DNA from: a virus
Taxonomy: Duplodnaviria > Heunggongvirae > Uroviricota > Caudoviricetes
Direction: 5' to 3' (one strand)
Length of the DNA: 64,000 nucleotides
Virus record (IMG/VR): IMGVR_UViG_3300005095_000172
Span: 1 to 64,000 of that record
The translations under genes and the position numbers were made by a program. The notes beneath the pieces were generated by a model. It worked only from the letters and a program-made list of their open reading frames with translations, was not told the origin of the DNA and did no database searches. Positions 47,931-64,000 of this stretch are shown piece after piece (the stretch's first letter is position 1; each line of letters begins with the position of its first letter).

Positions 47931-48401
47931 TTAATCTTTTTTGACAAAATGCACAGTTTTCGAGTGGGAAAAATAATCTAATATTTCAGTATTAGTCATT
48001 TCATAAAATTCAGTATGTTCTAGACCAAATTTCAAAAACATTTTCATGTATTTATTTTTTCCTCTAAGCTCCGTACTTTCGTGAAGTTTTGAGTTAGAAT
48101 ACTGTAAAGCAATAATTTCATCTTCTATATTACTTCTTTCAATGGGATATATAACTCTTCCATTTTCATCCCAAATAGCATAATTTAAATCTATATCTGT
48201 AATGTCAAATAAAACTGCAAACTTGAAGAAATAGAAGTTGATATGGTTTTCGTTAATTTTTCCTAAATCTTTTCTAAGGTAAGTTATCTTACCTTTGATC
48301 TTTGATCTTACTGCTTTTGTGTATGGGGTTTTAGTGAGGAAGAGTTTAAGTTCAGTTAGAGAACTAATTCTTTCTATTTCTTTAAATATATTTCTTTTCA
48401 T
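47931..48401 (-). CDS. hypothetical protein between the split-intein halves (possible partner of the nuclease)
   Basis: ATG with GGAG RBS; no recognisable motif. Confidence 0.4.
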   Translation of the reverse strand: MKRNIFKEIERISSLTELKLFLTKTPYTKAVRSKIKGKITYLRKDLGKINENHINFYFFKFAVLFDITDIDLNYAIWDENGRVIYPIERSNIEDEIIALQYSNSKLHESTELRGKNKYMKMFLKFGLEHTEFYEMTNTEILDYFSHSKTVHFVKKD

Positions 48402-48446: not shown

Positions 48447-49430
48447 TCAACTTACACTTAAAATGTCATCCCCAACTAATAATTCATCAACTCTTACCCA
48501 ACCCCTTTTTGTGTTTACTTTATGGTTTCCAGTGATAATAAGTTCTTTCCCGTCCTCAGTCTTTAGCTTATACGTCTGTTCTTTTGGAAGATTCTTGTGT
48601 ACTTTTCTTACCTTTTTGTATTCATATTCACCAGAGTTTTCATTTATCGTCAATACTTCTTCACCAACTGAAATCTCACTTATTTTTTTCACCCCATCTT
48701 TTGTCAGTATTGGTGTGTTTGGATGTAAACATTCATCAACTATTACATAATCTAATTGGTCATAGTCGGACTCTTTCATAAGTATTCCCGACTGCCATGT
48801 AGTGACAACCATAGGCTTACTAAATGATTTTTCTTTCCCAGCAAATATCGTGTGAAGCTTTTTATCTGCATCTTCTTCACTCATCCCATAACTAAGGAAA
48901 TCTGAACGCATCTGTTCGGCTAATCCGACATTCGGAACTATCAGTAAACCTTTCTTTCCGTGTCTTTCGAAGAATGACATGATAAGAAAAACAATCAAAC
49001 TTTTTCCTGCCCCAGTAGCCGCTACGATTATTCTTCGTGGATGCTTGAGTACTTCCCTTAATGCGTCAACTTGATAATCATATGGTTCAAATGGGAGATT
49101 TAGTGATTTAATATGTTCTTGGATATCTGCTTCTGAGAAAAATTCTGGTTCAGTCTTAGGAGTGTAAGGTTCGTCTAAGTGGTCTTTATATCTAAGTGAA
49201 ATTGTTTCAGCTAACCCTTTTGGTATTTGCATAGATAAGTCAGATAACACCTTGAAATAGTATTTCTTACCGTCCCATATACCAGATCTGTATTTTGGTG
49301 AAAACTTATACCCATCCACAAAAACACTCAAGTCATCCATTAATTTAGTTCTTAGAACTAAAGCTTCTTCTTCTGAATGAGAATCGAAAGTTATAATAGA
49401 AAAACTTTCATCTTTATCAAAAATCTTCAT
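48447..49430 (-). CDS. uvsW: UvsW helicase N-terminal fragment followed by a 94-aa split-intein N-half (IntN)
   Basis: N-terminus 'DGYKFSPKYRSGIWDGK' matches T4 UvsW 'DGYRFNPRFRYGNWDGR'. Walker A 'ATGAGKS'. 'VIVDE|CLHPNTPILTKDG...ITGNHKVNT...' are intein blocks A/B. The ORF ends at a stop after IntN (48450-48731). Confidence 0.8.
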   Translation of the reverse strand: MKIFDKDESFSIITFDSHSEEEALVLRTKLMDDLSVFVDGYKFSPKYRSGIWDGKKYYFKVLSDLSMQIPKGLAETISLRYKDHLDEPYTPKTEPEFFSEADIQEHIKSLNLPFEPYDYQVDALREVLKHPRRIIVAATGAGKSLIVFLIMSFFERHGKKGLLIVPNVGLAEQMRSDFLSYGMSEEDADKKLHTIFAGKEKSFSKPMVVTTWQSGILMKESDYDQLDYVIVDECLHPNTPILTKDGVKKISEISVGEEVLTINENSGEYEYKKVRKVHKNLPKEQTYKLKTEDGKELIITGNHKVNTKRGWVRVDELLVGDDILSVS

Positions 49431-49795: not shown

Positions 49796-50071
49796 TTAAT
49801 GCTTAAAATTAAATTCTAGTCTATTTTCATTTTTAGACCAATATCTTTCTATTATTCCAGTGACTGTTCTGTACACATAACCGTCATCGATGTCAACTAC
49901 ATAAGAATCTGATGGAAAGCGTTTCAACTCCTTTATGACATCTTTTACAGTTGAAACCCCACTTGTGAAATCGTGGTCAATCGTACCATCCTCCTGAATA
50001 ATTATACCAGAGGTAAATTTAATGTTCTTAGGATACTGTTCTAAAATTTCAATTAATTGTTCTGAATTCAT
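49796..50071 (-). CDS. hypothetical protein
   Basis: ORF track; promoter element upstream. Confidence 0.4.
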   Translation of the reverse strand: MNSEQLIEILEQYPKNIKFTSGIIIQEDGTIDHDFTSGVSTVKDVIKELKRFPSDSYVVDIDDGYVYRTVTGIIERYWSKNENRLEFNFKH

Positions 50072-50077
50072 TTTTAG

Positions 50078-50118
50078 CCTTTCTTTTTAACTTCTATATT
50101 ATAACTAAAGTTAGCTTA
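50078..50118 (-). promoter_or_regulatory. promoter element copy
   Basis: Consensus match. Confidence 0.55.
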
Positions 50119-50126
50119 GAATTCCT

Positions 50127-50444
50127 TTAATCCAAAAGTTCAATTTTGGCTCTTTTAATTTTATACCCGTCGAAAGTACCTTTTACATTTATAGTTGAAT
50201 TCAAGTCAATACAAGTTCTTCCAACAAGATGAGTATCGAATTCCAAAATCCCTGAATCAACAAGAACTCTTTGCTTTTGTTCATTCAATGAAGAGAAGTG
50301 TACTCTTACCTTTTTCTTATCTTTTGTCATACCAATCAAAGTATATGTCCATCCGTACATACCGTTCTCAATCTTCATTTGGATAGGCTTAATGTCAATG
50401 TCAACTTTTTGCCCATTTTCAAGGTCAGTCCAATCAAGCATCAT
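50127..50444 (-). CDS. hypothetical protein
   Basis: ORF track. Confidence 0.4.
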   Translation of the reverse strand: MMLDWTDLENGQKVDIDIKPIQMKIENGMYGWTYTLIGMTKDKKKVRVHFSSLNEQKQRVLVDSGILEFDTHLVGRTCIDLNSTINVKGTFDGYKIKRAKIELLD

Positions 50445-50855
50445 AATCCAGACAGCGTTATACTGTCTTTCAGTAAGAGTTCCATTTCTTCAATCATTTC
50501 TTTCATACTTCTCAAGAAAGAGTTATCTTCTGAACCTTGAGCAATAAATTCCATCATTTCAGAATTTGTTTCATAGAACTCTTGTACAAAAGTCTTACCT
50601 CTGGCTTCCTCTTCTTCTAAGCGTAGAACTCTTTTTAGTTCGTCTTCATAAGCTTTGTTTTCAGAATATACTTCAGAAATTGTCTTTCCCATTAGTTTAT
50701 TGGCACAACCACTTCCAACAGAGACAGTTTTATTAGTTTTGTTATTTTTTGATTAGATAAGCGTGTTTGATTCCTCTTCCACAAGTGTCACAACAGAAAG
50801 TTTTATCTGAAGATGATCTTTTCTCGAGGATAGAGAATTTAATAGAGGTTTTCAT
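50441..50855 (-). pseudogene. Cys-containing small protein split by a frame change in an A6 run (37-aa N-terminal piece + 83-aa ORF)
   Basis: The ATG with promoter element is at 50853-50855. The 0-frame stops right after AAA AAA (T-run 50745-50750 on the plus strand), and the +1 frame opens exactly there. Confidence 0.3.
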
Positions 50856-50861
50856 TTTAAG

Positions 50862-50904
50862 CCTTTCTTTTAACTATTATATTATAGCTAAAATTAGCTT
50901 AAAA
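50862..50904 (-). promoter_or_regulatory. promoter element copy
   Basis: Consensus match. Confidence 0.55.
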
Positions 50905-51103
50905 TGAAATTAATTATGGAGTATGTAGTAGTAAGATTAGGAATCTTCTCCATCCCAATCTTTATCTACTTCATCAAAGAATTTCTTTCGATCTTCTTTG
51001 TCTAGTTCAGAAGGAGATTTAACTCCATATTTCTTTAATTTTCCTTTGAAGAATTTTTGATATTCTGTTTCTTCATTCAGTTTTTCTAGAATTTCTTTCA
51101 ACA

Positions 51104-51310
51104 TTATTTCTTTCCTTGCATCTTCTTTAATGCTCTTTCAAGCTCTGTTTTAGCTTTCTCTAAATAACTAAAAATGACTCTGTCTATATCAGATGAACTA
51201 ATTTTAGTATTCATTTTCTTTATGATATCATTGATTTCAGAAAATGTAAGTTCAGCGTCATCAGCCCAACTCGCACTTTCTTTTAAATCTTTAATGGTTT
51301 CTCTTAACAT
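51104..51310 (-). CDS. hypothetical protein
   Basis: ORF track. Confidence 0.35.
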   Translation of the reverse strand: MLRETIKDLKESASWADDAELTFSEINDIIKKMNTKISSSDIDRVIFSYLEKAKTELERALKKMQGKK

Positions 51311-51319
51311 AACTTTAAC

Positions 51320-51559
51320 TTATGCAAATTTATAAGTATGATTACCGCAAAGGTCTAATTCCACACCTTTACCTTTTTTATTTTTGGCATAAATAAAACC
51401 ACCAACGACTCCGCTACCACCATCGACGAAAAATTCTTCTCCGTCATTTCTTTTTAGTACTACTACGCCATCAGAAGTACCAATTTTCTTTGCCAATTCT
51501 CTAGCTTCTGGACAAAGTATTTCATTAGACTGAAGTTTCTCAACAATTTCTCTTAACAT
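51320..51559 (-). CDS. hypothetical protein
   Basis: ORF track. Confidence 0.35.
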   Translation of the reverse strand: MLREIVEKLQSNEILCPEARELAKKIGTSDGVVVLKRNDGEEFFVDGGSGVVGGFIYAKNKKGKGVELDLCGNHTYKFA

Positions 51560-51597
51560 AAAAGTTCCCCTTAGTTTCTTATATTTAAGCTTTATTT

Positions 51598-52074
51598 CTA
51601 ATTAAACTTTCCGCCCTTAAACATCTCCCAATCAATTAGACTCTTTATTGTCCACTTCATAGAGTCAAGACCCTTAAGTACCAATTCTATTTGTTCAAGT
51701 AAATCAGTGACCATTTGAAGTTTTTCTTTAATAGCTATATATTCATTATCCTTTTCAATAAAAGATTTAATTTCAGAATTGGATAGGGAGAAATTGAATT
51801 CATTTTTATAGTACAAGTATCTTTCTTGCCACTTTCTATCCAATTCAAATGAATATTTTGTGTGTTTTTGTTTTATAGTGAAGAATAGCGATTGATAATA
51901 ACCAAGAATTTCTGTATGTTTTCGTAACCTTTCACTTATGTCTTTAATTTCAAATTTAATAAATTCGTTATATCTGTCAAATAATTTTTCAGTATCCATT
52001 CTAGTCCCAAAATCTTCTTTCACCGATAAGTTTATAGACCTCTTTTCTAAGCATTTCTTCCTTATCAACTTCAC
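51598..52074 (-). CDS. hypothetical protein
   Basis: ORF track. Confidence 0.4.
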   Translation of the reverse strand: MKLIRKKCLEKRSINLSVKEDFGTRMDTEKLFDRYNEFIKFEIKDISERLRKHTEILGYYQSLFFTIKQKHTKYSFELDRKWQERYLYYKNEFNFSLSNSEIKSFIEKDNEYIAIKEKLQMVTDLLEQIELVLKGLDSMKWTIKSLIDWEMFKGGKFN

Positions 52075-52447
52075 TCAATTCATCACCAGCTTTCTTTAAT
52101 TCTTTGAATAAAGAAACTATTTCATTTAACAGTGCTTCGTCCTTTTCCCACCCAATATAGTGAGAATGTTTCCAATTTTCAGCTCTATCTTTATAAAGTT
52201 CTTCTATCACATCATCAGCATATGAATAGTCCCACCATCTATGTCTCCAAATAACCTTTCTGTAACGCCAGAAGTTCTTTAATCCTATGATTAAATCATA
52301 TCTAAAAAAGTCTTTAATTTTATGCGCTGTTCTATAAACCCAAAGCTCAATCTTTTCTTTTTTAGACAGCTTAGTTTCATCGAACATTCGTTCCAATTCT
52401 TCTAAATCAATAACTTCAAATTCTTCAAGCTTATTCTTCATATTCAA
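52001..52447 (-). CDS. hypothetical protein
   Basis: ORF track; overlaps its neighbour at the 5' end, so the real start is probably internal. Confidence 0.35.
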   Translation of the reverse strand: MNMKNKLEEFEVIDLEELERMFDETKLSKKEKIELWVYRTAHKIKDFFRYDLIIGLKNFWRYRKVIWRHRWWDYSYADDVIEELYKDRAENWKHSHYIGWEKDEALLNEIVSLFKELKKAGDELSEVDKEEMLRKEVYKLIGERRFWD

Positions 52448-52736
52448 GTTCCTTACAATGTTCGCAAAGCACGCAATCCTCTTCTAGAGTGGGCATTAAT
52501 TCAAAATCAGTTTTGTCTATTCTCCTAATGCCCATTCCGGTTAGTGTCCATTCTATGTCTTCTTTGGGCATATCATCTATGAAGAAAGATTTTCCTTTTA
52601 TGATTCCTTCTACTTGGCAATTTTCACATCTATCCACAGTAACTGGGGTGAATACCCCATTTACTTCGTGGAATTTTCTGACACCAAACCCTATAAGTTT
52701 CTTTAGGACAATTCTATCAGAATAATCAAAATCCAC
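52431..52736 (-). CDS. hypothetical Cys-containing protein
   Basis: 'CENCQ...CVLCEHC'. Confidence 0.35.
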   Translation of the reverse strand: MDFDYSDRIVLKKLIGFGVRKFHEVNGVFTPVTVDRCENCQVEGIIKGKSFFIDDMPKEDIEWTLTGMGIRRIDKTDFELMPTLEEDCVLCEHCKELEYEE

Positions 52737-52805
52737 TATACTTCCTTATGAACTTTCTCCATCACTTCTAATGATGATATCTCCTTCGTATATGAAAAAC
52801 TTCCA

Positions 52806-53861
52806 TCATAACCCAGCTTCTTTATCTAGCCTTTCCATGAACCATTTTCTTGCGATAGTTGAAATGTGTTTATTCACATCTTTTGGTTCAAGACCTCTTT
52901 CTACAAGGACGTCCATTTCTTCTTTCATAACATCGGAAACAACCGCCTTAAGGAACTCTCCTGTTCTCTTAACATCACCCTTTCCACCATTGAGAACATC
53001 GAATGTCTCATTGTACATTTGTTCTAGTCTCCAAGATGGAGTAGCGTAATTAGCAAAGTCAATTTTCTTTTGTTCAAGCTCACTATCCACTTTACTTAGT
53101 TTTTTCACTTTTGAATTAGAATGCTTATCCCCCTTACTCTTAAAGGAAAATCTATTTCCGTCGAACCAACCGACGAACACAATCCCTTCTCCGATACCTG
53201 AAACGCCAAATTTCTTAGCGACAGGACATTCATTTTCTACATATTCGGTGAGTTTCACAATTTCTTCTTGTGCTTTAGAAGGATTTTCAAAATCAATATC
53301 TACTTCGAATGTTTCAAAGTCAAAGATAGAAAAAATTCTAAGTTCAGGATTTTTTACTCTATTGAAAATTACTCTTGGATCCACAGCCCATCTATAATCT
53401 TCCTCATCTTTCATTTTGAATTTAATACCGAACATATAGAATGATTTGTCTAGTTCAGAAATACCGACCCCATTTTGAATTCCATTTCCAGCCCATTCTC
53501 CATAAATACATAATTCTTCAATTTCATCGCCTTTATACATATCATCAAAAACTTCATTCAGCATTGACTCAATGTAATCCCTAATACTTTCTACATAAAA
53601 GGCAAATCCTGCGTTGTCTTTGTCTACGGTGATTACATTTTTCTTAGACTGACACCACATTTCACGCTCTGAATTCATACAAATACTAGCGTTTGTTCCG
53701 TGGAGCTTCACTGTACCTACAAAAGTCACCGTAGGAAGGTCTTTAGAATGGTCATAAACAGCATTTCCGTCTTCATCCACACCTTTGTATCTCGCAACAT
53801 GAGATAGGTCTTTTACCACGTTTCTGAATTGAGCAATGCTCGGCATTTTGATTAGTTTCAT
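52806..53861 (-). CDS. RNA ligase, Rnl2-like (nucleotidyltransferase with KxHGxN motif I)
   Basis: 'VTFVGTVKLHGTNASI' versus T4 Rnl2 'WVAREKIHGTNFSL'. Confidence 0.6.
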   Translation of the reverse strand: MKLIKMPSIAQFRNVVKDLSHVARYKGVDEDGNAVYDHSKDLPTVTFVGTVKLHGTNASICMNSEREMWCQSKKNVITVDKDNAGFAFYVESIRDYIESMLNEVFDDMYKGDEIEELCIYGEWAGNGIQNGVGISELDKSFYMFGIKFKMKDEEDYRWAVDPRVIFNRVKNPELRIFSIFDFETFEVDIDFENPSKAQEEIVKLTEYVENECPVAKKFGVSGIGEGIVFVGWFDGNRFSFKSKGDKHSNSKVKKLSKVDSELEQKKIDFANYATPSWRLEQMYNETFDVLNGGKGDVKRTGEFLKAVVSDVMKEEMDVLVERGLEPKDVNKHISTIARKWFMERLDKEAGL

Positions 53862-53873
53862 TTTTCTTCCTTT

Positions 53874-54128
53874 TTAAAATTGAGAACTTAGTTCGCTGTA
53901 AATTTTCTCAGTTTGTTCGTAATGTGTGTCTAAAAATTCTTCCAATTTCTGAAGATCATGAGTAGTTGCATCTGTTCCAAACAAAGCGTCGATTTCTCTT
54001 AGTAGAGTTTCCATTTCATCTGCTCTTGGGTGTTTAACGATAGAACAAAAGTCTTTGATGTATCTCAAGTTTACTCTAAGGAGTTTTGCGTCATTTATCA
54101 TATCGTGTAATTCATTTATTAGTTTCAT
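53874..54128 (-). CDS. hypothetical protein
   Basis: ORF track. Confidence 0.35.
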   Translation of the reverse strand: MKLINELHDMINDAKLLRVNLRYIKDFCSIVKHPRADEMETLLREIDALFGTDATTHDLQKLEEFLDTHYEQTEKIYSELSSQF

Positions 54129-54137
54129 ACTTTATCC

Positions 54138-54398
54138 TTAGAAAGATTTCTTAATGTATTTTTCGAAAAGCTCTATTTTTGAAATGAATTCACCGTCGGA
54201 ATTCTTTGCTCTTGTATTATAAGAACCAAATGGAACCCAATACACTCCATTGATTTCATACTCAGTTTCCCTGAAAAAATCCCTTACGTCTTTAAAAGTA
54301 ATTGAGTTTAGCATCTTTTCATAGGTTCCATTACCTTTAATTTTGTTTCCACAAATCACGGTATCAATTAGTGTATCGATGATAACTTTTGTTTTCAT
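54138..54398 (-). CDS. hypothetical protein
   Basis: ORF track; promoter element upstream. Confidence 0.4.
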   Translation of the reverse strand: MKTKVIIDTLIDTVICGNKIKGNGTYEKMLNSITFKDVRDFFRETEYEINGVYWVPFGSYNTRAKNSDGEFISKIELFEKYIKKSF

Positions 54399-54403
54399 TT
54401 TAA

Positions 54404-54447
54404 GCCTTTCTTTTCAACTATTATAGTATAACTAAAGTTATCTTAAA
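54404..54447 (-). promoter_or_regulatory. promoter element copy
   Basis: Consensus match. Confidence 0.5.
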
Positions 54448-54454
54448 AAACAAA

Positions 54455-54997
54455 TTAAACAAAAGTGTGTTCGATAAAAGTTCTTATTTTTTCCTTTCCA
54501 TCAAATTCGTTAGTGAATTCATAATCATATTTTCCATCTGAAATAGTTTCCCTTACCCAATTATCAAAATCGTTTTTAGGGTGTTTTGCTTCGCCTTTTA
54601 TAGCTACTATTTGAAATCCATTATCTACACACCAATCATATTCATTTTGTGTTCTGATATCTGAAATCACATAATTGTCGACATGAACTAGACTCATTTC
54701 GTCTGCTAACATTCTAACAAAAAGTTCATTTTCAACATCTCTAAGTTTATTCAGCGACAACCAAATTTCTCTTGGTGTCTTAGTTATCACTTCCCCAGTC
54801 TCTTCGATAAGAAGATTAAGTGGTTTCTCTTTTTCTTCTGGTGGATAGTCTGGTTTCAACCAAGGGTAAATTTTAGCACCGAGTTTTTTCAGTTGGTCTG
54901 AAAAACTGAATCTGACAAACCCATATTCATTCTTCAGAATATCTACTATATAGTCCTTCCCTGAGCCACTGACTCCCATGAATGCAATCTTTACCAT
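54455..54997 (-). CDS. deoxynucleoside monophosphate kinase (T4 gp1-like)
   Basis: 'IAFMGVSGSGKDYIV' versus T4 gp1 'IFLSGVKRSGKDTTA'; similar size. Confidence 0.55.
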   Translation of the reverse strand: MVKIAFMGVSGSGKDYIVDILKNEYGFVRFSFSDQLKKLGAKIYPWLKPDYPPEEKEKPLNLLIEETGEVITKTPREIWLSLNKLRDVENELFVRMLADEMSLVHVDNYVISDIRTQNEYDWCVDNGFQIVAIKGEAKHPKNDFDNWVRETISDGKYDYEFTNEFDGKEKIRTFIEHTFV

Positions 54998-55001
54998 TTA
55001 A

Positions 55002-55262
55002 TCACTCCATGATCTGTTTATAGTGAAATCTAAAATAATCGATATTTATGAACCATAAATCTGCGTTTTCTTTTTCGATATTATCTAAATCTCCAGCCAC
55101 AACACCGACGATTTCATCGTCCTTGAATTTCTTTAAGTATTCCTTATCATGGTTCCCCATAGAAATAGAAGGGTATTTTTTCTTCATTTCTTCTATTTCT
55201 TTCTTATTCACAGTGATTACTTCGCTTTCAGTAGGTTTCTTGATCACTTTAATTCTTTCCAT
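55002..55262 (-). CDS. hypothetical protein
   Basis: ORF track. Confidence 0.35.
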   Translation of the reverse strand: MERIKVIKKPTESEVITVNKKEIEEMKKKYPSISMGNHDKEYLKKFKDDEIVGVVAGDLDNIEKENADLWFINIDYFRFHYKQIME

Positions 55263-55283
55263 AATTATACATTCTCCTTAATT

Positions 55284-55493
55284 TTAACAATGATTTACAT
55301 CTAATGGATCGTTACCTTCCGGTATTTTCACTATAAATCTTTTATTATTGATTTCTCCGTCAGACCAAACTCCGTCAAACAATCTTACCTTATCGACCCT
55401 TAGAATAGACAAATATTCAGTTGGGTCGAATTCTACTCGGATATACTCATTTCCGTTTTTAGCAAATGTGTGTTCGTGAAATACATTACTCAT
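55284..55493 (-). CDS. hypothetical protein
   Basis: ORF track. Confidence 0.35.
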   Translation of the reverse strand: MSNVFHEHTFAKNGNEYIRVEFDPTEYLSILRVDKVRLFDGVWSDGEINNKRFIVKIPEGNDPLDVNHC

Positions 55494-56056
55494 GTGGTTC
55501 TACTTTCCACGATTTCTATAATTTTACTAACAGCGTCTTCACTCATTTCCACCGAATAATAATCAATACCGTATTCTTCTAGAGTTTGTTTAATTTCTTT
55601 GTCTTTCTGTATAGCTTCTTCTAAAGTTTGATTTCTTCCATATTCTTGATACCCATGTTCTTCAAGATTTCTTTCTAAGAAAATATTAATGGTGTGATAA
55701 GATTTCCACATAGAAACTAATAAATTCTTGAATTCTTCTTTTGGTAAGTGCGGGTTGTCTTGTAAATAAACTAAACCAAGGAAAAACGGTCCATCATTTA
55801 CTGTATAATCAACTTGTCCTTCGAGTTTAAACCAAGGATGTGATTGTTTTGCTAAAATCATAACTTGGTCTTTGATTTTAAAATGGTCTTTACTATATGT
55901 TAAATCCTTTGCGTATTCTGGCACATATTCAATGCTATATCCTTCTTTTTTCATTTGATGGAAGACCCCAGTAGAGATAGTGCTTTTTCCCGTTCCTGGT
56001 CCTCCAAACAAGCATATATTCAATAACTTTCTATCTGTTTGCTTCACAATTTTCAC
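55490..56056 (-). CDS. P-loop kinase (AAA_28 / NadR ribosylnicotinamide-kinase-like)
   Basis: Walker A 'LFGGPGTGKSTIS'; small kinase-sized; fits the NAD salvage theme. Confidence 0.4.
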   Translation of the reverse strand: MKIVKQTDRKLLNICLFGGPGTGKSTISTGVFHQMKKEGYSIEYVPEYAKDLTYSKDHFKIKDQVMILAKQSHPWFKLEGQVDYTVNDGPFFLGLVYLQDNPHLPKEEFKNLLVSMWKSYHTINIFLERNLEEHGYQEYGRNQTLEEAIQKDKEIKQTLEEYGIDYYSVEMSEDAVSKIIEIVESRTT

Positions 56057-56237
56057 CTAATTTTATAATTTTTCCTGTTCCAGAGCATCTACTACATATA
56101 TCAGACTCTGGCTCCCCGAATGCTCCGTGCCCGTGTATCACACCAGAACCATTGCAATATTCACAAACATTTACAACAATTATTCCACGTTTTATAAGTT
56201 TAGAAAGTTTCACTTTCTTTTGATTATCTTTACTCAT
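56031..56237 (-). CDS. zinc-ribbon protein
   Basis: 'CEYCNGSG...CSRCSGTG'. Confidence 0.35.
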   Translation of the reverse strand: MSKDNQKKVKLSKLIKRGIIVVNVCEYCNGSGVIHGHGAFGEPESDICSRCSGTGKIIKLGENCEANR

Positions 56238-57042
56238 AATACCAGCCTTCTTCCTTTAGAAGTTCTTTCGCTTCTTCTGTGCTTAGTTCGATTGCTTCTC
56301 CTTTAACATAAGGAGTGTCGATTTTAATGGTGGTTTCACCAGCAAAGCCGTCTTTCTTGAAATATAAAGGTTCAACTTCAAAAGACCTAAGACCAATCAT
56401 AGTTCTTTTATTTGGGACTGATTCAGGCACACCATGAAGACATTTAGTGTTGTCGAAAATTAATACATCACCGACACCTAAATTCAATTCCTTTTCTTCA
56501 CCATTACTGTCAATTATCTTAAGACCACCACCGTCGTTTTCATTTTCTAAGACGATTACCATTACTAATCTAGGAATTAACCCTTCTTCCAACTTAATAT
56601 ATTCTTTATCCCATTCACCTTTGAATATTTCTGCGTCGAAGTGGTAAGGCAGAGAATTGTCATACCCAGATTTATATTTCTGGTAATTCACCAGTACTTT
56701 TGTATCTAGTGGAATTTTATTGTATTCACCATAAAGAAAATTACTAAGAACACCAAAATATAAATACATGAGTTCTTCTACTCCTTGGATTTCAGAAGAC
56801 ATAAGAAACGGGGCAGTGTCAGGGGTTTCTAATGAGACCAATACAGCGTCTCCTCTTCTACCTTTTGTATCTTCTCTTTTTCTAAATAATTTTCTTTCTA
56901 CAAAATCTTCAGAGTATTCATTTTCAATAGAAGGAATTGTCTCTTCTAATAGAATCTTTATTCCAGGTTCTCCAACTCCATTTCTTTCTATATGGAACCC
57001 GCTTTCTTTCAAATTGTTTATTATTTCATTAACATAGCCCAT
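56230..57042 (-). CDS. possible 2OG-Fe(II) oxygenase-fold protein
   Basis: 'LPYHFDAE' (HxD) ... 'KCLHGVP' ... 'GLRSF'; weak. Confidence 0.3.
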   Translation of the reverse strand: MGYVNEIINNLKESGFHIERNGVGEPGIKILLEETIPSIENEYSEDFVERKLFRKREDTKGRRGDAVLVSLETPDTAPFLMSSEIQGVEELMYLYFGVLSNFLYGEYNKIPLDTKVLVNYQKYKSGYDNSLPYHFDAEIFKGEWDKEYIKLEEGLIPRLVMVIVLENENDGGGLKIIDSNGEEKELNLGVGDVLIFDNTKCLHGVPESVPNKRTMIGLRSFEVEPLYFKKDGFAGETTIKIDTPYVKGEAIELSTEEAKELLKEEGWYYE

Positions 57043-57096
57043 TAAATCTTCTCCACTTGGTAGTTCTTAATTACTGAAGGAAATTTCAAGTAGAAA

Positions 57097-57312
57097 CTAC
57101 TCTTTATTTTCCAATAATATAGCTTTCATTTCATCAGGAAGAAGTTCTTCTGGACCTTCTTCAGTGAACTTTAGAAAGATTTCATTTTCTAAAAACTTAG
57201 TTTTCCCATACAAGTTGTTTTCTAGGACTGTAGTATTAATGGGAAACTCTGGTTCCCCACATTCCATACTCACATACACTTCCCCATCAATAGTAATTTC
57301 ATAAATTTCCAT
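57097..57312 (-). CDS. hypothetical protein
   Basis: ORF track. Confidence 0.35.
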   Translation of the reverse strand: MEIYEITIDGEVYVSMECGEPEFPINTTVLENNLYGKTKFLENEIFLKFTEEGPEELLPDEMKAILLENKE

Positions 57313-59384
57313 TACTCAACCTCGATATTGAATTTTCTGAAACTAGATTGCTCAATAGAATAGATGAATTCATCAGAACCACTGATTGGTATAGTTAGGT
57401 TAAAATCAACTTCTGATAATTTACTTTTCTTTTGGCAAATATAAGCTAACACCAAAGAAGCATACTCATATAATAGGTTAGAACCGACAGGAACATGGTA
57501 TTTCTTAAAAATATTATTCACACCTTTGATGTTTTTACCGTAAGAAGGAATTCCTTCTGATATGATCAGTTCACTGTAAAAATCGACAAGTTCTTTAAAG
57601 AAATCGTGTGTATCATCCAAATCAGGGAAGACAATTTCATCATCAGCATTTAATCCAATTTTTTGATGGAGTTTATTTTCAAGAACTTGATACCCTTGAG
57701 CACCATTGAAATCATACAAGTGGAGGTTAGTAACGTGGTGGTTGTAAGAACCAAGAGACACTTCTGGGTCAATCTCGTCTTGGATAGATTGTAGAATCAT
57801 TTCTTGTAGGAATGTCCATTCAAAAATATTTATACTCCCCCAACCCCAAATTACATCACCTGACCGAGACTTAACATTCATATGTAGTCTTTTATCAGGA
57901 GTGACAAAAAAGTCCATGGCCATGTTGCAATTATGAACAATCCAACCACCAGATTTAAGAATAAAATTATGATTATCTTCAACGGTAATATCGAAAACGC
58001 CAACAGATTCTTCCACATATTCTACGCCTATGACCTTAATGAACCCCATTGAAGTGTCTGAATTTTCTTTAATTCTTCTTTCAAATACTTTATGGTCACC
58101 GATTCTATTTTTTAATTGGTGTTTGAAATTCTTCCAAGAACCAAATTTATCAACTATCCTTGTTAAAGAAGGAAATCCCATGGTACCAAGATTTTTATTT
58201 GCGTAATCATAAGAAAGAGTTTCCAATTCTTCTATTCTCTTTTCGAAGATGTCTAAAATTTCTTCTTTCGAAAGTCCTTTAAACATTAGCCCGTGAGAAT
58301 ATCCAGGATTTTGTCTATTGGCTTCGACTTTCTTTTCAATAACCTTCTTATTTCTGCTTGGATTATTTAGTAATTTATGAATTCTATTGTGTTCACTTTC
58401 TGTCAACAGCTCTAAATTTTCCTTAGAATTATCAAAATGATCTCCATTTTTATGATGAACAGTCATCCCTTCTGGAATTTCTCCATAAAAGTATTCAAAT
58501 GAATCTCTATGCCAAGAGGTCAAATTCGAGAATCTCTTATTTTCTCTTAAATTCTTTTTAATCAAACCACCGTTCTCATGAATTGGAGTCGAAAGTATAT
58601 AGTCACCTATTTCGATTTCAGATGCTTTTTTCTGTATTACGGTGTATGGTTGTCTGCTCCTTCCAACAAAAGAATATTCTTTCATATACATAGAATGATC
58701 TTCAGTAACACAAACCTCATCTCCGTTACTTAATGTGATCTTTAAGTATCTACTCACGTCTTTTGTTTTACCAGACCACTCAACTCTTTTTAGTTCCACG
58801 CATTCTGAACTTTCGTTATAAGAGTAAACCAAATCTTCAGTTGTTACTTCAGATATTCTTTTATACCCTGAGTTCGTGAGAATTTCTGTATGAGAAAGGA
58901 AACAAGGTTTGTCCAATGTTTTATCAAGCCCATACACATTCTCCAAACTTTCTTTAGTATCCAAGTTAGGGTCACCAATGTAAAGAGTAGCTCTTCTTGT
59001 ATAAATTCCTTCGTTTCTAAATTGTTCAATCACGTCATCTAATTGATTACCGTTCTTAATTCTTTCAGGATAACCTCCACGCCAATTTTTTCCGTCATCT
59101 GAAAAGTCTTTTGCTCTTGGTAAGAAAAACGATAGATAAGGGTCTATTCCATTGGACCCAGCGAATACCCAAAAAGTTTCTGCGATAGAAGCAAAAATAT
59201 TATTCTTTCTTCCATTCAGTGAAAGGTGTCTAGCCTTTGGATTTTCGATAGTAGAGAAGAAGTTATAGATAGTGTTGATGTCTCCATTCCTTGATTTTGT
59301 TCTATAACCATTGTAGATTAATTCTTCTAACGCTTTCAAGACAGCGTCGTTTATTGTCTTTCCTTCTATAAAGGTAGGCTTCAT
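57312..59384 (-). CDS. thymidylate synthase-family enzyme (ThyA or dNMP hydroxymethylase) carrying an HNH intein at the catalytic Cys
   Basis: Exteins 'IFASIAETFWVFAGSNG' and 'LDKP|C..NMAMDFFV..RSGDVIWGWGSINIFEWTFL' align to the TS 'ELLWF..G', 'PCHxxxQFYV', 'RSxDxxLGxPFN' regions. The intervening 325 aa have intein blocks. Confidence 0.8.
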   Translation of the reverse strand: MKPTFIEGKTINDAVLKALEELIYNGYRTKSRNGDINTIYNFFSTIENPKARHLSLNGRKNNIFASIAETFWVFAGSNGIDPYLSFFLPRAKDFSDDGKNWRGGYPERIKNGNQLDDVIEQFRNEGIYTRRATLYIGDPNLDTKESLENVYGLDKTLDKPCFLSHTEILTNSGYKRISEVTTEDLVYSYNESSECVELKRVEWSGKTKDVSRYLKITLSNGDEVCVTEDHSMYMKEYSFVGRSRQPYTVIQKKASEIEIGDYILSTPIHENGGLIKKNLRENKRFSNLTSWHRDSFEYFYGEIPEGMTVHHKNGDHFDNSKENLELLTESEHNRIHKLLNNPSRNKKVIEKKVEANRQNPGYSHGLMFKGLSKEEILDIFEKRIEELETLSYDYANKNLGTMGFPSLTRIVDKFGSWKNFKHQLKNRIGDHKVFERRIKENSDTSMGFIKVIGVEYVEESVGVFDITVEDNHNFILKSGGWIVHNCNMAMDFFVTPDKRLHMNVKSRSGDVIWGWGSINIFEWTFLQEMILQSIQDEIDPEVSLGSYNHHVTNLHLYDFNGAQGYQVLENKLHQKIGLNADDEIVFPDLDDTHDFFKELVDFYSELIISEGIPSYGKNIKGVNNIFKKYHVPVGSNLLYEYASLVLAYICQKKSKLSEVDFNLTIPISGSDEFIYSIEQSSFRKFNIEVE
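57930..58904 (-). mobile_element. intein (325 aa) with an HNH homing-endonuclease domain, inserted at the TS-family active-site Cys
   Basis: Begins 'CFLSHTEILT', block B 'TEDHSMY', HNH 'HHKNGDHFDN...EHNRIH', ends 'VEDNHNFILKSGGWIVHN' + C. Confidence 0.8.
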
Positions 59385-59448
59385 TCAATTTTCTCCTGTT
59401 TTCATTTATAAAGTTATTTTATTGTATAAAAGTTTTCTTAATTGGAAC

Positions 59449-60549
59449 TTATTTCCAACCCATTTCTTTTGCAAGTTTATATCTTCTTGAAGTGAATGAT
59501 TTAAACTTCAAAATCTCACTTTCATCCACACCATGTTTTCTTAGTTCTGATTTCATTTCTTCATAGACAACTTTCGGTGATCTGAAGAAGTTTTCCTTTG
59601 TTAAGAATTCTCCAACTTTACTTTTGATAAATTTTCTTCTTCTCGTTTCTTCTATGCTGAACTTTTTTCTCTTTTTAGGAAGTACTGAAGTAAAATTCAA
59701 CTTTTCTTGTAGTTCTTCAAATGAATACTTAGGAATTAAGTTTATCATTTTAAAGAATTTCAAGTAATTTGTCTCAGACCTGATTGCCCAAGGTCTCACA
59801 GATTGTTTATAGTCATTGATTGAGTGAGATTGATTAGAATATTCTGAATGAATTATGTTGTGCGCAACTGGGTTAATCATAATCATCCCAAAGAATTCAG
59901 TAAGCTCTTCAACGCATTCTTGTGAAGATAAATCAATATTCCTCAGTAAATCACTAGGGTTCTTTTCTCCCTTAATCACGCTATGTCCATATTGGCTCAC
60001 TTCCATATGATGGAGGTCAAATGTGAATGAATTTTTTGTTGGGGATTTTGTTAAGAACGGGTCAATGTTAGTGAAGAATGGAATACCGCTAATTGGACAT
60101 CGTTGTTCCATGATATTCTTCTTACCAAAATACATACAGGAAAGGACTTCCATATTTTTCAGTCTTCTTTCGTCCCTTGAATTTAATGAAATTTCAGTAC
60201 CGTCATTCAAGACAACTTTATATTTGTCTTTAGAAATTCTCACATACTCTTTGAAGTCTTTTAAAGTGTATTTCGTCTTGAAATACTTATTGTATTTTAA
60301 AATAATTCTCTGAGCATCTTTTCCGACAGCGTTGATATTTGTGGTTCTATTTTCTTTAGAGAAGAGTTTTTGCAAGTCAGTTTCTTTATTCAAAAACTTC
60401 AAAACTGACTTTCTGTTATAAGTATGTAGTGGGTCGTATTTTCCTAATACAATATCCACACTTTCAGTAAGAGTATGTCCTTGGATAAGTTTTTCTTCAA
60501 TTTCTTTTACGATTTTTTCGTCAATAAATTCTGGAATAGAAATCTTCAT
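59449..60549 (-). CDS. putative free-standing HNH-type endonuclease
   Basis: 'FDLHHME...N...NPVAHNIIH' HNH-like His/Asn spacing; large N-terminal region of unknown function. Confidence 0.35.
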   Translation of the reverse strand: MKISIPEFIDEKIVKEIEEKLIQGHTLTESVDIVLGKYDPLHTYNRKSVLKFLNKETDLQKLFSKENRTTNINAVGKDAQRIILKYNKYFKTKYTLKDFKEYVRISKDKYKVVLNDGTEISLNSRDERRLKNMEVLSCMYFGKKNIMEQRCPISGIPFFTNIDPFLTKSPTKNSFTFDLHHMEVSQYGHSVIKGEKNPSDLLRNIDLSSQECVEELTEFFGMIMINPVAHNIIHSEYSNQSHSINDYKQSVRPWAIRSETNYLKFFKMINLIPKYSFEELQEKLNFTSVLPKKRKKFSIEETRRRKFIKSKVGEFLTKENFFRSPKVVYEEMKSELRKHGVDESEILKFKSFTSRRYKLAKEMGWK

Positions 60550-60602
60550 TTATTTCCTTTTTACAAATTGAAGAATTATACTATAATTGACTTAATCTTT
60601 AC

Positions 60603-61538
60603 TTAAAAATTCTCTCCGAGGTCTTCTTCTATAATCACACATTCTTTAAGCATCTTATCTATATTACTTCTTATTTCAGACTTCTTAAGTTTACCGAAAT
60701 GCGTCTTTTTATGTATAGTACCTAGCTTATGATCATATAAAGTGTATTCGTGTTTAGGGAAGGTCACTTCACCTAATTCTTCCAACACTTCATCAGGAGT
60801 CTTCTTAGAGTTCAGTGCTGCGTCCATGATAGCTTCACTCCATCTTAACGCAGATTCCATCTCATTGATTTCTAGTGTGCTAAAGAAATGTCTGAATTCT
60901 ACTGTACCGACATATTTTAATTGAAATAGGTTAATTCCAGTCCTATTGACAAAATGCCAATTATACCCACCATCTTTATTTTTACTTACATATGATTGGA
61001 AATATTCTTCCATAGTTCGTGCTTTCATCATTTTATCAAAGATAGCTTCTGAAATAGGGTGACCATTTTGTTTCTTTCTGAATTTATCGTATTTCTTCGC
61101 TGCTTCGTATGCTGCTCTAGAATATTTTTTCCTAGATGGTTCAACGAATTCTCTAGTAATTTCTAGGATTCTTTCTTGATGTTCAAAGAAATACTTTGTG
61201 ATATCCTTCACCGTTTCCAAATCTTCAGATAATCCAGGTACTCCTACATGAACATGGAAGTCGCAAGTATGGTTAATATTTTTCCTTGGTAGTAGCTCAA
61301 GAATTTCTTTGATATTCTTTACTTGTTCCTCTATTGTATCTGTTGGCGTTACATTAACCTCTCCGCCAAGAGAAACCATTTTCTTAGTATTGTCCACCCC
61401 AAGCCCAGAAGAATTAACTAAAGTGTTCTCTTCCCTATTCCATTGCCCTAGATGACCAAGTTCTATTCTTTGGTCAGTATCGACTAATTCCAGTTCACTA
61501 CCAAATGTGAAGATTTCTTTCGGGTATTTTACAGCCAT
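60603..61538 (-). CDS. putative amidoligase (glutamine-synthetase / GCS2-like carboxylate-amine ligase fold)
   Basis: N-terminal 'FTFGSELELVD' metal-binding ExE strand motif typical of the GS/GCS2 'phage amidoligase' family. Confidence 0.4.
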   Translation of the reverse strand: MAVKYPKEIFTFGSELELVDTDQRIELGHLGQWNREENTLVNSSGLGVDNTKKMVSLGGEVNVTPTDTIEEQVKNIKEILELLPRKNINHTCDFHVHVGVPGLSEDLETVKDITKYFFEHQERILEITREFVEPSRKKYSRAAYEAAKKYDKFRKKQNGHPISEAIFDKMMKARTMEEYFQSYVSKNKDGGYNWHFVNRTGINLFQLKYVGTVEFRHFFSTLEINEMESALRWSEAIMDAALNSKKTPDEVLEELGEVTFPKHEYTLYDHKLGTIHKKTHFGKLKKSEIRSNIDKMLKECVIIEEDLGENF

Positions 61539-62206
61539 TCATCCATCCCAGAATTATTTTCTTCTTCGTTATGAACATAGTCATAGTCAAAATAACTTTT
61601 CACCAGAACTTCTTTAGGGGCTTGCCAATCAATTTGAACTACTCTATCGTTTTCTTTGACTTGTTCCTTAAATGCTTCTCCGCATTTTCTGATAACTTCA
61701 TTATCTTTCCACCCAGGAGAATTTTCAGCCCAATCCAATCCTCTATTCTTTCCGGTTCTTCCGTTGGTTCTTTCAATAAAGTCTTGAATATCGTTATAGT
61801 ATGTATATAGATTGTGTACCTCAGTAGCACCATACTCTCTTAATTTTTCTGGGCCACCTTGAATACTTCTATTGTTGAAATACCCTTCCATGAAAACAGT
61901 TTCTACATCATCATTTTCTGAAAGTTCTTTAATGAAGTTTAGTCTATGTTCCCATTTACTTAGGTATGCTGTATCTAGCGAAACCCATCCATCACGATCT
62001 TTAGTGAACTTACCAAATACAAGCCACCCGTTACTAAACAATAATCCAACTTGTTCGACTTTAGGTTCTTTACCCTTTCTTTCTATTTCATAATAAAATG
62101 GTTCATAGCTAAATTCACTCATCAGATAATCAACTAATACCTTTGTTCTAGTAGATTTTCCAACTCCATTAGAACCCATATAATTAATAACTCTCAATTT
62201 TCCCAT
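61529..62206 (-). CDS. P-loop kinase/NTPase (candidate nucleotide or DNA-base kinase)
   Basis: Walker A 'YMGSNGVGKSTRT'. Confidence 0.45.
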   Translation of the reverse strand: MGKLRVINYMGSNGVGKSTRTKVLVDYLMSEFSYEPFYYEIERKGKEPKVEQVGLLFSNGWLVFGKFTKDRDGWVSLDTAYLSKWEHRLNFIKELSENDDVETVFMEGYFNNRSIQGGPEKLREYGATEVHNLYTYYNDIQDFIERTNGRTGKNRGLDWAENSPGWKDNEVIRKCGEAFKEQVKENDRVVQIDWQAPKEVLVKSYFDYDYVHNEEENNSGMDEWL

Positions 62207-62218
62207 TAGAATCTCCTT

Positions 62219-63211
62219 TTAAACCCATTCTTCAATCGAAGAAGTGTTTAGAATTTTTATTTTATCTTCAAATGGAAATTTAAATTTTTCCTTCTGAATT
62301 CCATCATTATTTACGAACCTTTTATCTAAAAGTTCTTCACGTGCTTCCCAAAGTATAGACCAATCTACTCCGTCGAATCCATTATTTTCTATAGATTTGA
62401 TATCTTCAGCCTGTCTATCTAAGTAATACCCAATATATCTACTATCTCTTTCCCTGAACAACTTTTTATACGCACAAGAAACAGTTTCTATCAAAAATGG
62501 GTCTACTTCCACGCCATCATTAATAAGTTCTTCCTGAAGTCTTTTTGTGTTAGCTTCAAGCCATTCTTTGTCTTCTTTAGAGAATTTATAGACTTTCTTT
62601 TTTCTTTTCCCATCTTCAATATAACGCTCTTTAGTAGCCCATTCGTCTTTTCCGAATGCTTTACATAACCCATGAGTATGACTTTCAGCGTTAGATTCTC
62701 CAAGAAATAAACGGTCTGGCTCTATTTTATAACCAGCTACTTGTTTCAGCATTTGTACCCAATTCCATACACTAAATCTACCAAAGTGGTCTATAGACTT
62801 ATACAATTCTTCCCAAATTGTATTGAAATTACTACTCGCTTCTCCTTTCAATAAATCGTCAAAGAAATCCTTTTGGCTATCACCAACAAGCTTCTTATAA
62901 GAAATGATCGTATCTGGGAGATATTTTCTTTGTTTAAGTTTATCTCGTTGAAACGGACAAAGCTTTTGAACATCTTTCCACCAATTTCTTAGTTTTGTCT
63001 CTCCAACGAGTTCTAAATCTGGGTATTCATTAAAAAGGAGGTATGCTGTAGGAAGATGATAAGTAATGCTATTCAAGAAACAAAACCAAAGAATTTGATC
63101 TTCATTCATTTCCAATCTATCAACAAGATAGTTACTCATCCAAATATTTGGATCTATGTCTTTTACCCTAAGTGAATTTTTATAGAATTCTTTAAAGCTT
63201 TCTTCTCTCAT
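62219..63211 (-). CDS. hypothetical protein (member of the modification-like cluster)
   Basis: ORF track; translationally coupled to the GATase gene. Confidence 0.45.
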   Translation of the reverse strand: MREESFKEFYKNSLRVKDIDPNIWMSNYLVDRLEMNEDQILWFCFLNSITYHLPTAYLLFNEYPDLELVGETKLRNWWKDVQKLCPFQRDKLKQRKYLPDTIISYKKLVGDSQKDFFDDLLKGEASSNFNTIWEELYKSIDHFGRFSVWNWVQMLKQVAGYKIEPDRLFLGESNAESHTHGLCKAFGKDEWATKERYIEDGKRKKKVYKFSKEDKEWLEANTKRLQEELINDGVEVDPFLIETVSCAYKKLFRERDSRYIGYYLDRQAEDIKSIENNGFDGVDWSILWEAREELLDKRFVNNDGIQKEKFKFPFEDKIKILNTSSIEEWV

Positions 63212-63843
63212 CCCATATCCCTATGGATTTTTTCATCTGAATTAGGAAGTACCTTTTCTATACTTTCATCTTTAAACCCAGCTCTTTTTAAGATATTTCT
63301 AGTACTAGCGATAATGTAGCCGTTTTCTAGCGTACCTTTCCATTGTGGTCTAAGACCATTTCTAGAGTTAGATATATTCCCATCTTTATCAAGTGAAACA
63401 ACAGAAACACTACACCCTTTATAGTCTTCATTGTAGTTTCTATTGTTTTTCAAGCAGTTCCAAAGGATTTCTGTATCGTTTCTTGTTTTATAGGAGTATC
63501 TCTTATCCCAATTTTCAGGTCCTTCTTGAGAAATGACTCCATTATGAACTATACAAAATTCATTATCGCCTATTGGTTGATTGAATTTTAAATCAGATGT
63601 ACTATATCTAATGTGTCCTATTAAAGAAAGTTCATCATTTACGATACATTGTTCAAAAGAAAAGTCTTTTAAGAATTCTGAAATGGTGATTGGTTTCGAG
63701 ACTATGCTTATATCTTTCCCATTAAACCAAGCTACGCCAGATGCGTGTTTTCCTCTAATTTCAGTTTCGAGGAAAACTCTTTTAAGGAGTTCAATATCAC
63801 TATTTTTTGGGGAGCTGATTTTAGCTCCTACTACACCGCACAT
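63208..63843 (-). CDS. class II (Ntn) glutamine amidotransferase domain protein
   Basis: N-terminal 'MCGVVG' catalytic-Cys start, as in GlmS/PurF/AsnB GATase domains. Confidence 0.65.
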   Translation of the reverse strand: MCGVVGAKISSPKNSDIELLKRVFLETEIRGKHASGVAWFNGKDISIVSKPITISEFLKDFSFEQCIVNDELSLIGHIRYSTSDLKFNQPIGDNEFCIVHNGVISQEGPENWDKRYSYKTRNDTEILWNCLKNNRNYNEDYKGCSVSVVSLDKDGNISNSRNGLRPQWKGTLENGYIIASTRNILKRAGFKDESIEKVLPNSDEKIHRDMG

Positions 63844-64000
63844 CTATTTTCCGCTTAAATCTGTAATTTCTTTTTCGATATTGTTATTTTCATCCATAAT
63901 CAGAACAGCAGGAACTAATTCATCTGCTTCCATTGGGGTCATTGAACCATATGCGATAACAATAATCTTGTCTCCTGGTTCAACCAACCTTGCCGCAGCA
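63844..64000 (-). CDS. PanD-like pyruvoyl-dependent aspartate alpha-decarboxylase, C-terminal part (truncated by the window edge)
   Basis: '[39 protein letters not shown]' versus E. coli PanD '[39 protein letters not shown]'. Confidence 0.6.

Follow-up and report, generated by a model that had tools for sequence, protein, structure and literature searches.

A predicted HNH intein directly before the catalytic cysteine of a probable dUMP hydroxymethylase in an uncultured phage

In the published surveys consulted, inteins listed under 'thymidylate synthase' reside only in the flavin-dependent ThyX (PMC5050341; PMC4760082, as COG1351; bioRxiv 10.1101/2025.01.02.630785, as IPR003669). The ThyA gene of phage T4, td, harbors a group I intron with the endonuclease I-TevI, the target of which coincides with a critical thymidylate synthase (TS) sequence (PMC2988022). 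A family of TS homologues also serves DNA hypermodification: 5-hydroxymethyldeoxyuridine (5-hmdU) DNA kinases (5-HMUDK) and amino-acid:DNA transferases (AADT) act on 5-hmdU already present in DNA, and their genes are reported to accompany a gene for a dUMP hydroxymethylase homologous to TS (PMC5889632, PMC8989533). Here we describe a gene of this family that is interrupted by an intein, in a 64,000-nt stretch of phage DNA (Caudoviricetes; positions 1 to 64,000 of IMG/VR record IMGVR_UViG_3300005095_000172), which we call the window. A literature search combining intein with thymidylate synthase, ThyA or hydroxymethylase found no ThyA-fold intein, and no PF00303 host appeared in the surveys. 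The inteins in the genome announcements of phages Maynard and CampHawk lie in terminase and UvrD. The interpretation that we find probable is that a class-1 HNH intein, predicted to splice and to encode a putative homing endonuclease, interrupts a probable dUMP hydroxymethylase directly before its catalytic Cys.

The gene occupies positions 57312..59384 including the stop codon (minus strand, as do all of its parts given below) and encodes, in a frame without internal stops, a 690-aa precursor of 79.7 kDa composed of N-extein, intein and C-extein. Direct reading of the sequence places a ribosome-binding site, AGGAG (59393..59397, minus strand), 8 nt upstream of the ATG. The N-extein (aa 1-160, 18.3 kDa; 58905..59384) contains the TS-fold active-site residues R32-N33-G34, E69 and R130-R131 and ends in ..TLDKP. 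It is followed by the intein (aa 161-485, 325 aa, 37.8 kDa; 57930..58904), which has an HNH endonuclease in frame and was delimited by Pfam matches and by the gap against intein-free homologues. The C-extein (aa 486-690, 23.7 kDa, plus stop; 57312..57929), characterized from alignments and an AlphaFold2 (AF2) model, opens with the +1 Cys at aa 486 (codon TGC, 57927..57929). It carries C486-N487, R507-S508-G509-D510, N519 at the pyrimidine-specificity position, N553-x-H555-x-Y557 and a helical C-terminal extension. The junctions read ..GLDKTLDKP/CFLSHTEILT.. and ..SGGWIVHN/CNMAMDFFVT... This is exactly what an earlier model-made note on the window, the sequence-only reading, had described for this open reading frame (ORF), although it did not give the minus strand, namely LDKP/C...VHN/CNMAMDFFV around a 325-aa insert. 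In silico removal of the 325 intein residues leaves a 365-aa spliced extein of 42.0 kDa.

The insert has the anatomy of a complete intein. Pfam recognized Intein_splicing (PF14890; cutoff 35.8 bits) in the precursor (E 6e-15, 55.7 bits) and in the excised intein segment (E 3e-17, 63.4 bits), and HNH_3 (PF13392; cutoff 24.8 bits) likewise in both (E 5e-13, 48.9 bits and E 2e-13, 50.1 bits, respectively). Sequence reading located block A (CFLSHTEILTNSG; 58866..58904), which begins CFLSHTEILT with the Cys1 nucleophile (Cys161), and block B (VCVTEDHSMYM; 58683..58715), in which TxxH corresponds to intein T67/H70. At the other end lie block F (VGVFDITVEDNHNFIL) and block G (GGWIVHN), with the penultimate His and terminal Asn (57930..58004); through the junction this region reads ..VFDITVEDNHNFIL..GGWIVHN/C, with Cys as the +1 residue. 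The HNH_3 endonuclease domain (58377..58511; Pfam aa 292-334) has the core motif VHHKNGDHFDNSKENLELLTESEHNRIH (aa 309-336), and its HNH (beta-beta-alpha-metal) motif is complete as HH..N..N..H..H. A helix pair of the FGSW type, resembling the 'homing endonuclease associated repeat' (58113..58178; Pfam HNH_repeat E 0.21, below cutoff), is a putative DNA-binding module, and its FGSWK.FK stretch is conserved in the relative P0002. The middle part of the AF2 precursor model matches the homing-endonuclease inteins TliVMA and PI-PfuI. Blocks A and B, the complete HNH domain and the HN/C terminus named in the sequence-only reading were thus all recovered, with Pfam scores above the cutoffs, and Cys1, His-Asn and the +1 Cys are present; the terminal splice residues, whose absence would have refuted that reading, are therefore in place. 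Given these scores and the intact splice blocks, the intein is real, far beyond chance. Judged by its sequence, the insert is a bona fide class-1 HNH intein, expected to splice and to encode a putative homing endonuclease. A bacterial intein-like (BIL) or pretoxin Hint domain was ruled out, as the insert has the two halves of a single enzyme on either side and ends in a canonical HN/C junction.

Alignment with intein-free homologues showed that the 325-aa insert falls exactly between a near-invariant Pro and an invariant Cys. In the alignment from the first search (nine homologues), six intein-free proteins (P0004-P0009) are continuous over the junction as ..TKDRP-CN.., and the window protein, P0002 and P0003 have an insert at the identical point. 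A search with the spliced extein returned 156 relatives, the nearest of which (P0011 to P0015; 70-74% identity, 368-369 aa) lack the insert; P0011 (74% identical) and P0013 (71%) are collinear across the junction as ..TKDRPCNMI... The empty-allele site in two relatives, L007 and L008, reads ..AAAGATAGACCA/TGCAATATG... A 42-member family profile places the motif DrpCN opposite ..APCH.. of ThyA (Cys146) and the catalytic Cys of MilA (..VACT..), and the family RSGD....N opposite RSxD....N177 of ThyA. The +1 residue of the intein is therefore the catalytic nucleophile of the enzyme, which bears out the earlier placement of the insertion at the 'PC' nucleophile of the TS/dNMP-hydroxymethylase family. 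Of the alignment columns with conservation of 90% or more among 63 intein-free homologues, the window protein keeps every one (64/64), which argues for selection on a functional spliced enzyme. Within the extein family, the residues expected to provide the phosphate-binding Arg and Ser and the catalytic Glu/Asp, R32, E69, R130/R131, R507-S508 and D510, vary little or not at all, and we take them to be the equivalents of R21, E58, R126/R127, R166-S167 and D169 of E. coli ThyA.

Two side observations concern the extein family. The residues preceding the junction (aa 157-160; 58905-58916, minus strand) are LDKP in the window and KDRP or KDIP in nearly all relatives, both intein-free and intein-bearing; the N-extein may have co-adapted to its intein, or the change may give immunity to its own endonuclease. 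Two intein-free relatives, P0004 (585 aa) and P0005 (589 aa), join the TS-fold domain to a C-terminal extension of ~200 aa of unknown function, and one of them is annotated as coming from a Candidatus Magasanikbacteria metagenome-assembled genome.

The identity of the host enzyme was approached through sequence, fold and clade. The spliced extein matched PF00303 (Thymidylat_synt) with 37 bits (cutoff 24.3) and, end to end, PHROG 3676 'thymidylate synthase' with E 1e-78. Its best solved relative by sequence is MilA, a CMP 5-hydroxymethylase (E 2.5e-12 with the single sequence, 2e-26 with the family profile); against ThyA the family profile gave a best E of 1e-10 and ~1e-8 for most chains, and T4 dCMP hydroxymethylase was weaker still. 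The AF2 precursor model (mean pLDDT 80.5, exteins mostly >90) also had MilA as its best PDB match, with a TM-score of 0.77-0.78 normalized to MilA and coverage of both extein halves and the helical C-terminal extension; thymidylate synthases ranked after MilA among the fold matches, together with the TliVMA and PI-PfuI inteins. N519 (N194 in spliced numbering) is invariant in the family and aligns with ThyA N177, where MilA has Asp, and the substrate base should therefore be uracil. A dCMP hydroxymethylase was ruled out by this Asn, in place of Asp, at the specificity position. The family motif is an invariant PCN, versus PCH in ThyA, and the segment FFLPRAxDFSDDG (YYAPGIAAYSADG), shared with MilA, stands where ThyA has a Trp-containing folate-binding segment, in a region aligned at low confidence. 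Homologues in deposited phages belong to Ackermannviridae, in which identity is ~41% over 61% of the query and, over the full length, 37-39% in a Serratia Miltonvirus and in Vibrio phages. Others are found in YuA-like Pseudomonas phages, M6 being a member of that group, and in SPO1-like Bacillus phages, with one SPO1-like match annotated as 'deoxyuridylate hydroxymethyltransferase'. The 64-kb window holds no second TS-family ORF. The mature enzyme is thus most likely a dUMP hydroxymethylase with 5-hmdUMP as its product, as judged from clade and context. The sequence-only reading had left the extein between ThyA and a dUMP or dCMP hydroxymethylase; the specificity Asn, the best match to MilA and the 5-HMUDK/AADT neighbors point to the dUMP enzyme and away from ThyA.

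These neighbors form a cluster at 54455-63843, all on the minus strand. A GATase_6 glutamine amidotransferase, identified by domain match (63208..63843), is followed by an amino-acid:DNA transferase (ADDT/aGPT-Pplase3; 62219..63211; PF18724, E 4e-12), a 5-hmdU DNA kinase 2 (HMUD2; 61529..62206; PF18747, E 3e-9, 37 bits, cutoff 25) and an Amidoligase_2 enzyme (60603..61538; PF12224, E 9e-10). On the other side of the intein-bearing gene are a weak match to a 2OG-Fe(II) oxygenase, below the Pfam cutoff (56230-57042), a P-loop kinase (AAA_28, PHROG 'thymidylate kinase'; 55490..56056) that is syntenic in relatives, and a dNMP kinase with Pfam/PHROG match (54455..54997). HMUD2 and ADDT thus lie within 3 kb of the intein-bearing gene. 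The association with hypermodification genes recurs at four loci of relatives (L002, L005, L007 and L008), and across loci with or without an intein the genes found were HMUD2, HMUDK_hel, ADDT, dUTPase_2 and NT5C. Besides GATase_6, ADDT, HMUD2 and Amidoligase_2, the window cluster has the weak oxygenase match and an ORF of the DnaJ zinc-finger type. L007 and L008, the closest relatives, have instead a T4 EndoIV-like gene and a fusion of an acetyltransferase with HMUD2. PMC8989533 assigns no role to amidoligase and GATase partners. The final DNA modification may differ, and may be an undescribed one.

When 1.84 billion cluster representatives were searched exhaustively with the intein in HMMER, 2380 matches were obtained (E <= 1e-3). 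Among the 147 best intein relatives listed outside the first search, 40 have TS-family exteins, with most insertions at profile position 159-160, immediately ahead of the catalytic Cys, and typical junctions of the form ..KD(I/V/R)P/C(L/F)xGDT ... (V/I)xHN/CN... Of the other TS-site inteins, 22 have a defined N junction; 19 of these are preceded by Pro at -1 and 3 by Ala. P0002 retains the HNH domain, as do about two-thirds of the related TS inteins that were checked. Full HNH inteins occupy the Cys site in the window protein, P0002 (46% intein identity) and P0111 (70% over the available stretch), and P0003 has a 172-aa mini-intein without endonuclease there. P0111 has the intein and P0011-P0015 are empty, although their exteins are only ~26-30% diverged. 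This coexistence of full, mini-intein and empty alleles at one site fits a homing cycle, and homing is the process that we would expect to underlie it. Identity to relatives is similar for intein and exteins (46% versus 48/36% for P0002; 70% versus 74% for P0111), and the GC content is 0.323 for the intein, 0.329 for the window and 0.343-0.356 for the exteins. Neither this divergence nor GC, overall or at third codon positions (GC3), showed a sign of recent horizontal acquisition, and the association of intein and host is therefore old.

The wider clade was visible only through the exhaustive HMMER search, as a word-indexed search with the intein alone found 3 proteins. An alignment-based scan found an insert at the Cys site in 0 of 43 IMG/VR loci, and a single-sequence scan of IMG/VR confirmed no relative. 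Megablast of positions 50000-64000 against GenBank phages gave no match, and at the sensitivity used no deposited phage genome had this intein in a TS-fold gene; GenBank phages do have related inteins in the NrdA genes of a few Ackermannviridae. Outside TS hosts, the closest relatives are in anaerobic ribonucleotide reductase, where the intein again lies directly before a conserved Cys. Taken together, the window element is a member of a sizeable metagenomic intein clade for which we found no description in the literature. One metagenomic protein of this set, P0126 (1365 aa), has three inteins in a single TS-fold gene: before 'YGPR' (profile position ~100), before the catalytic Cys, and before 'SNINIFEF' (~190, the specificity loop). 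Inserts near profile position 190 were also seen in P0140, P0164, P0186 and P0191, which indicates a second recurrent intein site in the TS fold.

The proposed mechanism follows the standard class-1 pathway. Cys161, the Cys1 of the intein, would undergo an N-S acyl shift, and Cys486, the +1 residue and the nucleophile of the enzyme, would attack to give a branched intermediate. Cyclization of Asn485 and an S-N shift would then yield the 42.0-kDa enzyme, with its native ..DKP-CN.. motif, and the free 37.8-kDa intein. Before splicing, the active site would be physically split, with its thiol serving as a splice nucleophile. The mature enzyme would make 5-hmdUMP, the first committed step of thymidine hypermodification, for which later enzymes appear to be encoded alongside. 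As the intein sits in the pathway-entry enzyme, production of modified DNA would depend on splicing. The target of the HNH endonuclease would be the conserved site ..AAAGAYMGNCCN/TGYAAY.. in intein-less alleles carried by related phages during co-infection; after a cut or nick there, recombinational repair would copy the intein in. By targeting the immutable Pro-Cys codons, the element would be shielded both from escape of the target site and from imprecise deletion. More tentatively, and with somewhat less confidence than doubt, we propose that the window element belongs to a large, apparently undescribed clade of HNH inteins in environmental phages, whose specialty is the codon for the catalytic Cys in pyrimidine hydroxymethylases and synthases of the ThyA fold. 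These inteins would natively splice after a -1 Pro and use the enzyme nucleophile as +1 residue, which would make splicing an obligatory, possibly conditional, gate on 5-hmdU supply and DNA hypermodification.

Several observations weigh against an active, mobile intein in a dUMP hydroxymethylase, and each can be set beside the alternative that it favors. A residue-level discriminator between hydroxymethylases and methyl-forming thymidylate synthases was sought, but none could be justified, and the Asn/Asp base-specificity position was the only usable one; the call between the two activities is drawn from clade and gene context. A genuine thymidylate synthase converting dUMP to dTMP, with the intein unchanged, would explain why the PF00303 threshold is passed, why the family goes by 'thymidylate synthase' in most sources and PHROGs, and why the specificity position has the Asn common to ThyA. 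We nevertheless regard it as improbable, given that sequence and fold are nearer to MilA than to any ThyA, that PCN stands for PCH and the MilA-shared segment replaces the folate-binding region (with the low-confidence alignment mentioned above), that the neighboring 5-hmdU DNA kinase and AADT need 5-hmdU in DNA (PMC8989533), and that cultured homologues come from phage groups known for 5-hmdU use. A further concern is mobility. Because intein and extein divergence are alike and GC matches, nothing points to a recent transfer, and the HNH may be inactive. The intein might then still splice but no longer home, with vertical inheritance and occasional loss accounting for its presence and absence; its divergence tracks that of the extein, its composition is fully ameliorated, and the P0003 mini-intein shows that endonuclease loss occurs in the lineage. 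However, the HNH_3 motif is complete (E 2e-13) and is kept in P0002 and about two-thirds of the checked TS inteins, and the polymorphism between P0111 and P0011-P0015 exists among exteins diverged by only ~26-30%. Loss of homing is therefore, in our view, unlikely, but it deserves serious consideration.

Splicing itself can also be questioned. Tested inteins with Pro at -1 spliced poorly or not at all, the Pro being poor for the first acyl shift (PMC6486613), and the window intein has Pro at this position. The intein part of the AF2 model is, moreover, only moderately confident, with several segments at pLDDT <50. A decayed, non-splicing Hint insert in a pseudogene, or one capable only of self-cleavage, would be compatible with the Pro, but it is hard to reconcile with splice-site residues that are all intact, an open frame of 690 codons, the 64/64 conserved extein columns and the lack of any other TS-family gene in the window as a replacement. 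Furthermore, the clade coexists stably with Pro, which takes the -1 position in 19 of 22 further TS-site inteins whose N junction is defined, and we consider a dead insert extremely improbable. Lastly, splicing could be conditional, for example through a redox-sensitive disulfide trap between Cys1 and Cys+1, so that the intein would be more than a parasite and would serve as a switch timing the hydroxymethylase. Cys is the nucleophile at both junctions, the active-site thiol is that of the +1 Cys, and Cys/Cys inteins in other systems are known to splice conditionally. On the other hand, no specific evidence for it was found here, and the closest relatives do without the intein, so that no essential regulatory role is required; we judge such a switch to be very improbable. 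A spliced, probably mobile class-1 HNH intein in a dUMP hydroxymethylase thus remains the explanation that we favor.

The window contains other selfish elements. A split-intein uvsW, an IS607 element and free HNH genes had been named in the sequence-only reading and were borne out at the domain level. The N part of uvsW (48447-49430, minus strand) has UvsW_N and ResIII/DEAD domains with an intein N-half at its end, and the C part (46070-47170, minus strand) starts with the intein C-half followed by Helicase_C. Between them lie an ORF without Pfam match (47931-48401) and one with a TnsA-like endonuclease N domain (47315-47773), and the arrangement resembles a natural split intein whose gap houses an endonuclease gene. 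The IS607-like pair (minus strand) consists of a Resolvase serine recombinase (9033-9623) and an OrfB_IS605/TnpB protein with a Cas12f1-like TNB domain (7828-8991), and a free-standing HNH gene (PF01844) is found at 6877-7389. The description of this set as 'unusually dense' is relative: four to five selfish elements share 64 kb, and the genome of T4 has 15 homing endonuclease genes, although the review that reports them treats T4 as an outlier among the T-even phages (PMC2988022). A 366-aa ORF immediately upstream of the intein gene (59449..60549, minus strand) had no Pfam, PHROG or PDB match. It has an HNH-like 'DLHHM...AHNIIH' pattern, unconfirmed as HNH; L007 has a 27%-identical homologue in the same slot and L008 an unrelated ORF there. 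From its sequence pattern, the ORF may be a free-standing homing endonuclease beside the intein-bearing gene. The window also encodes, on the minus strand, the auxiliary metabolic genes NAMPT (18880-20319), NAD kinase (15420-16157) and a Thg1-like tRNA-His guanylyltransferase (27543-28259), as well as a cytidylyltransferase-like protein that may be NMNAT (18115-18855). The window has gp32, RNase H, primase and two RNA ligases besides, and the whole set is consistent with a T4-like phage with an NAD salvage module.

What is new in this locus is that an intein occupies this host fold at this site, has a native -1 Pro and is tied to a pathway of DNA hypermodification, whereas the mechanism is entirely standard: apart from these features, it is a textbook homing element on immutable active-site sequence and implies no new mechanism. 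The ThyA/dNMP-hydroxymethylase fold is added to the known intein hosts, the published 'thymidylate synthase' inteins that we found being all in the unrelated ThyX, and the catalytic Pro-Cys codon pair emerges as a recurrent homing site in uncultured phages. An intein in the entry enzyme of thymidine hypermodification links a selfish element to an anti-restriction trait. If the clade splices efficiently with a -1 Pro, it would offer a useful natural scaffold for protein-ligation tools. In practical terms, automated annotation may miss or mis-size the hydroxymethylase, a marker gene, when it is interrupted by an intein.

ThyX inteins of mycobacteriophages, actinobacteria and cyanobacteria are likewise mobile inteins near the active center of a phage or bacterial enzyme of thymidylate synthesis, within the nucleotide-metabolism network, but the fold and chemistry of ThyX are unrelated to those of the window host, which has the ThyA/dNMP-hydroxymethylase fold (PF00303) and is interrupted at the catalytic Cys codon. 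The T4 td intron and related thy introns resemble it as selfish elements that target conserved, critical coding sequence in a ThyA-fold gene of T4-like phages; the td intron, however, is removed from RNA and has a GIY-YIG endonuclease, whereas the window element would be removed from protein, has an HNH endonuclease and uses another site. The HNH inteins of NrdD (P0132/P0134/P0139) and of NrdA (Salmonella phages maane and pertopsoe, Dickeya phage Coodle) share the architecture of a Hint domain with in-frame HNH_3 and an FGSW-type module, and those of NrdD, at the NrdD junctions only, also the position directly before a conserved Cys; they differ in host protein and are only 23-34% identical to the window intein. 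On the enzyme side, the phage dUMP hydroxymethylases (SPO1-type, and the TS homologues of ViI and M6) have the same TS fold, Cys nucleophile and association with 5-HMUDK/AADT (PMC5889632, PMC8989533), but no intein, and 27-41% identity to the window extein. MilA (PDB 5b6d/5jnh), the best match in both sequence and structure, shares the TS fold and the Cys nucleophile; it differs in its cytosine-specific Asp, where the family has Asn, in an identity of ~11% by structural alignment, and in being uninterrupted by an intein.

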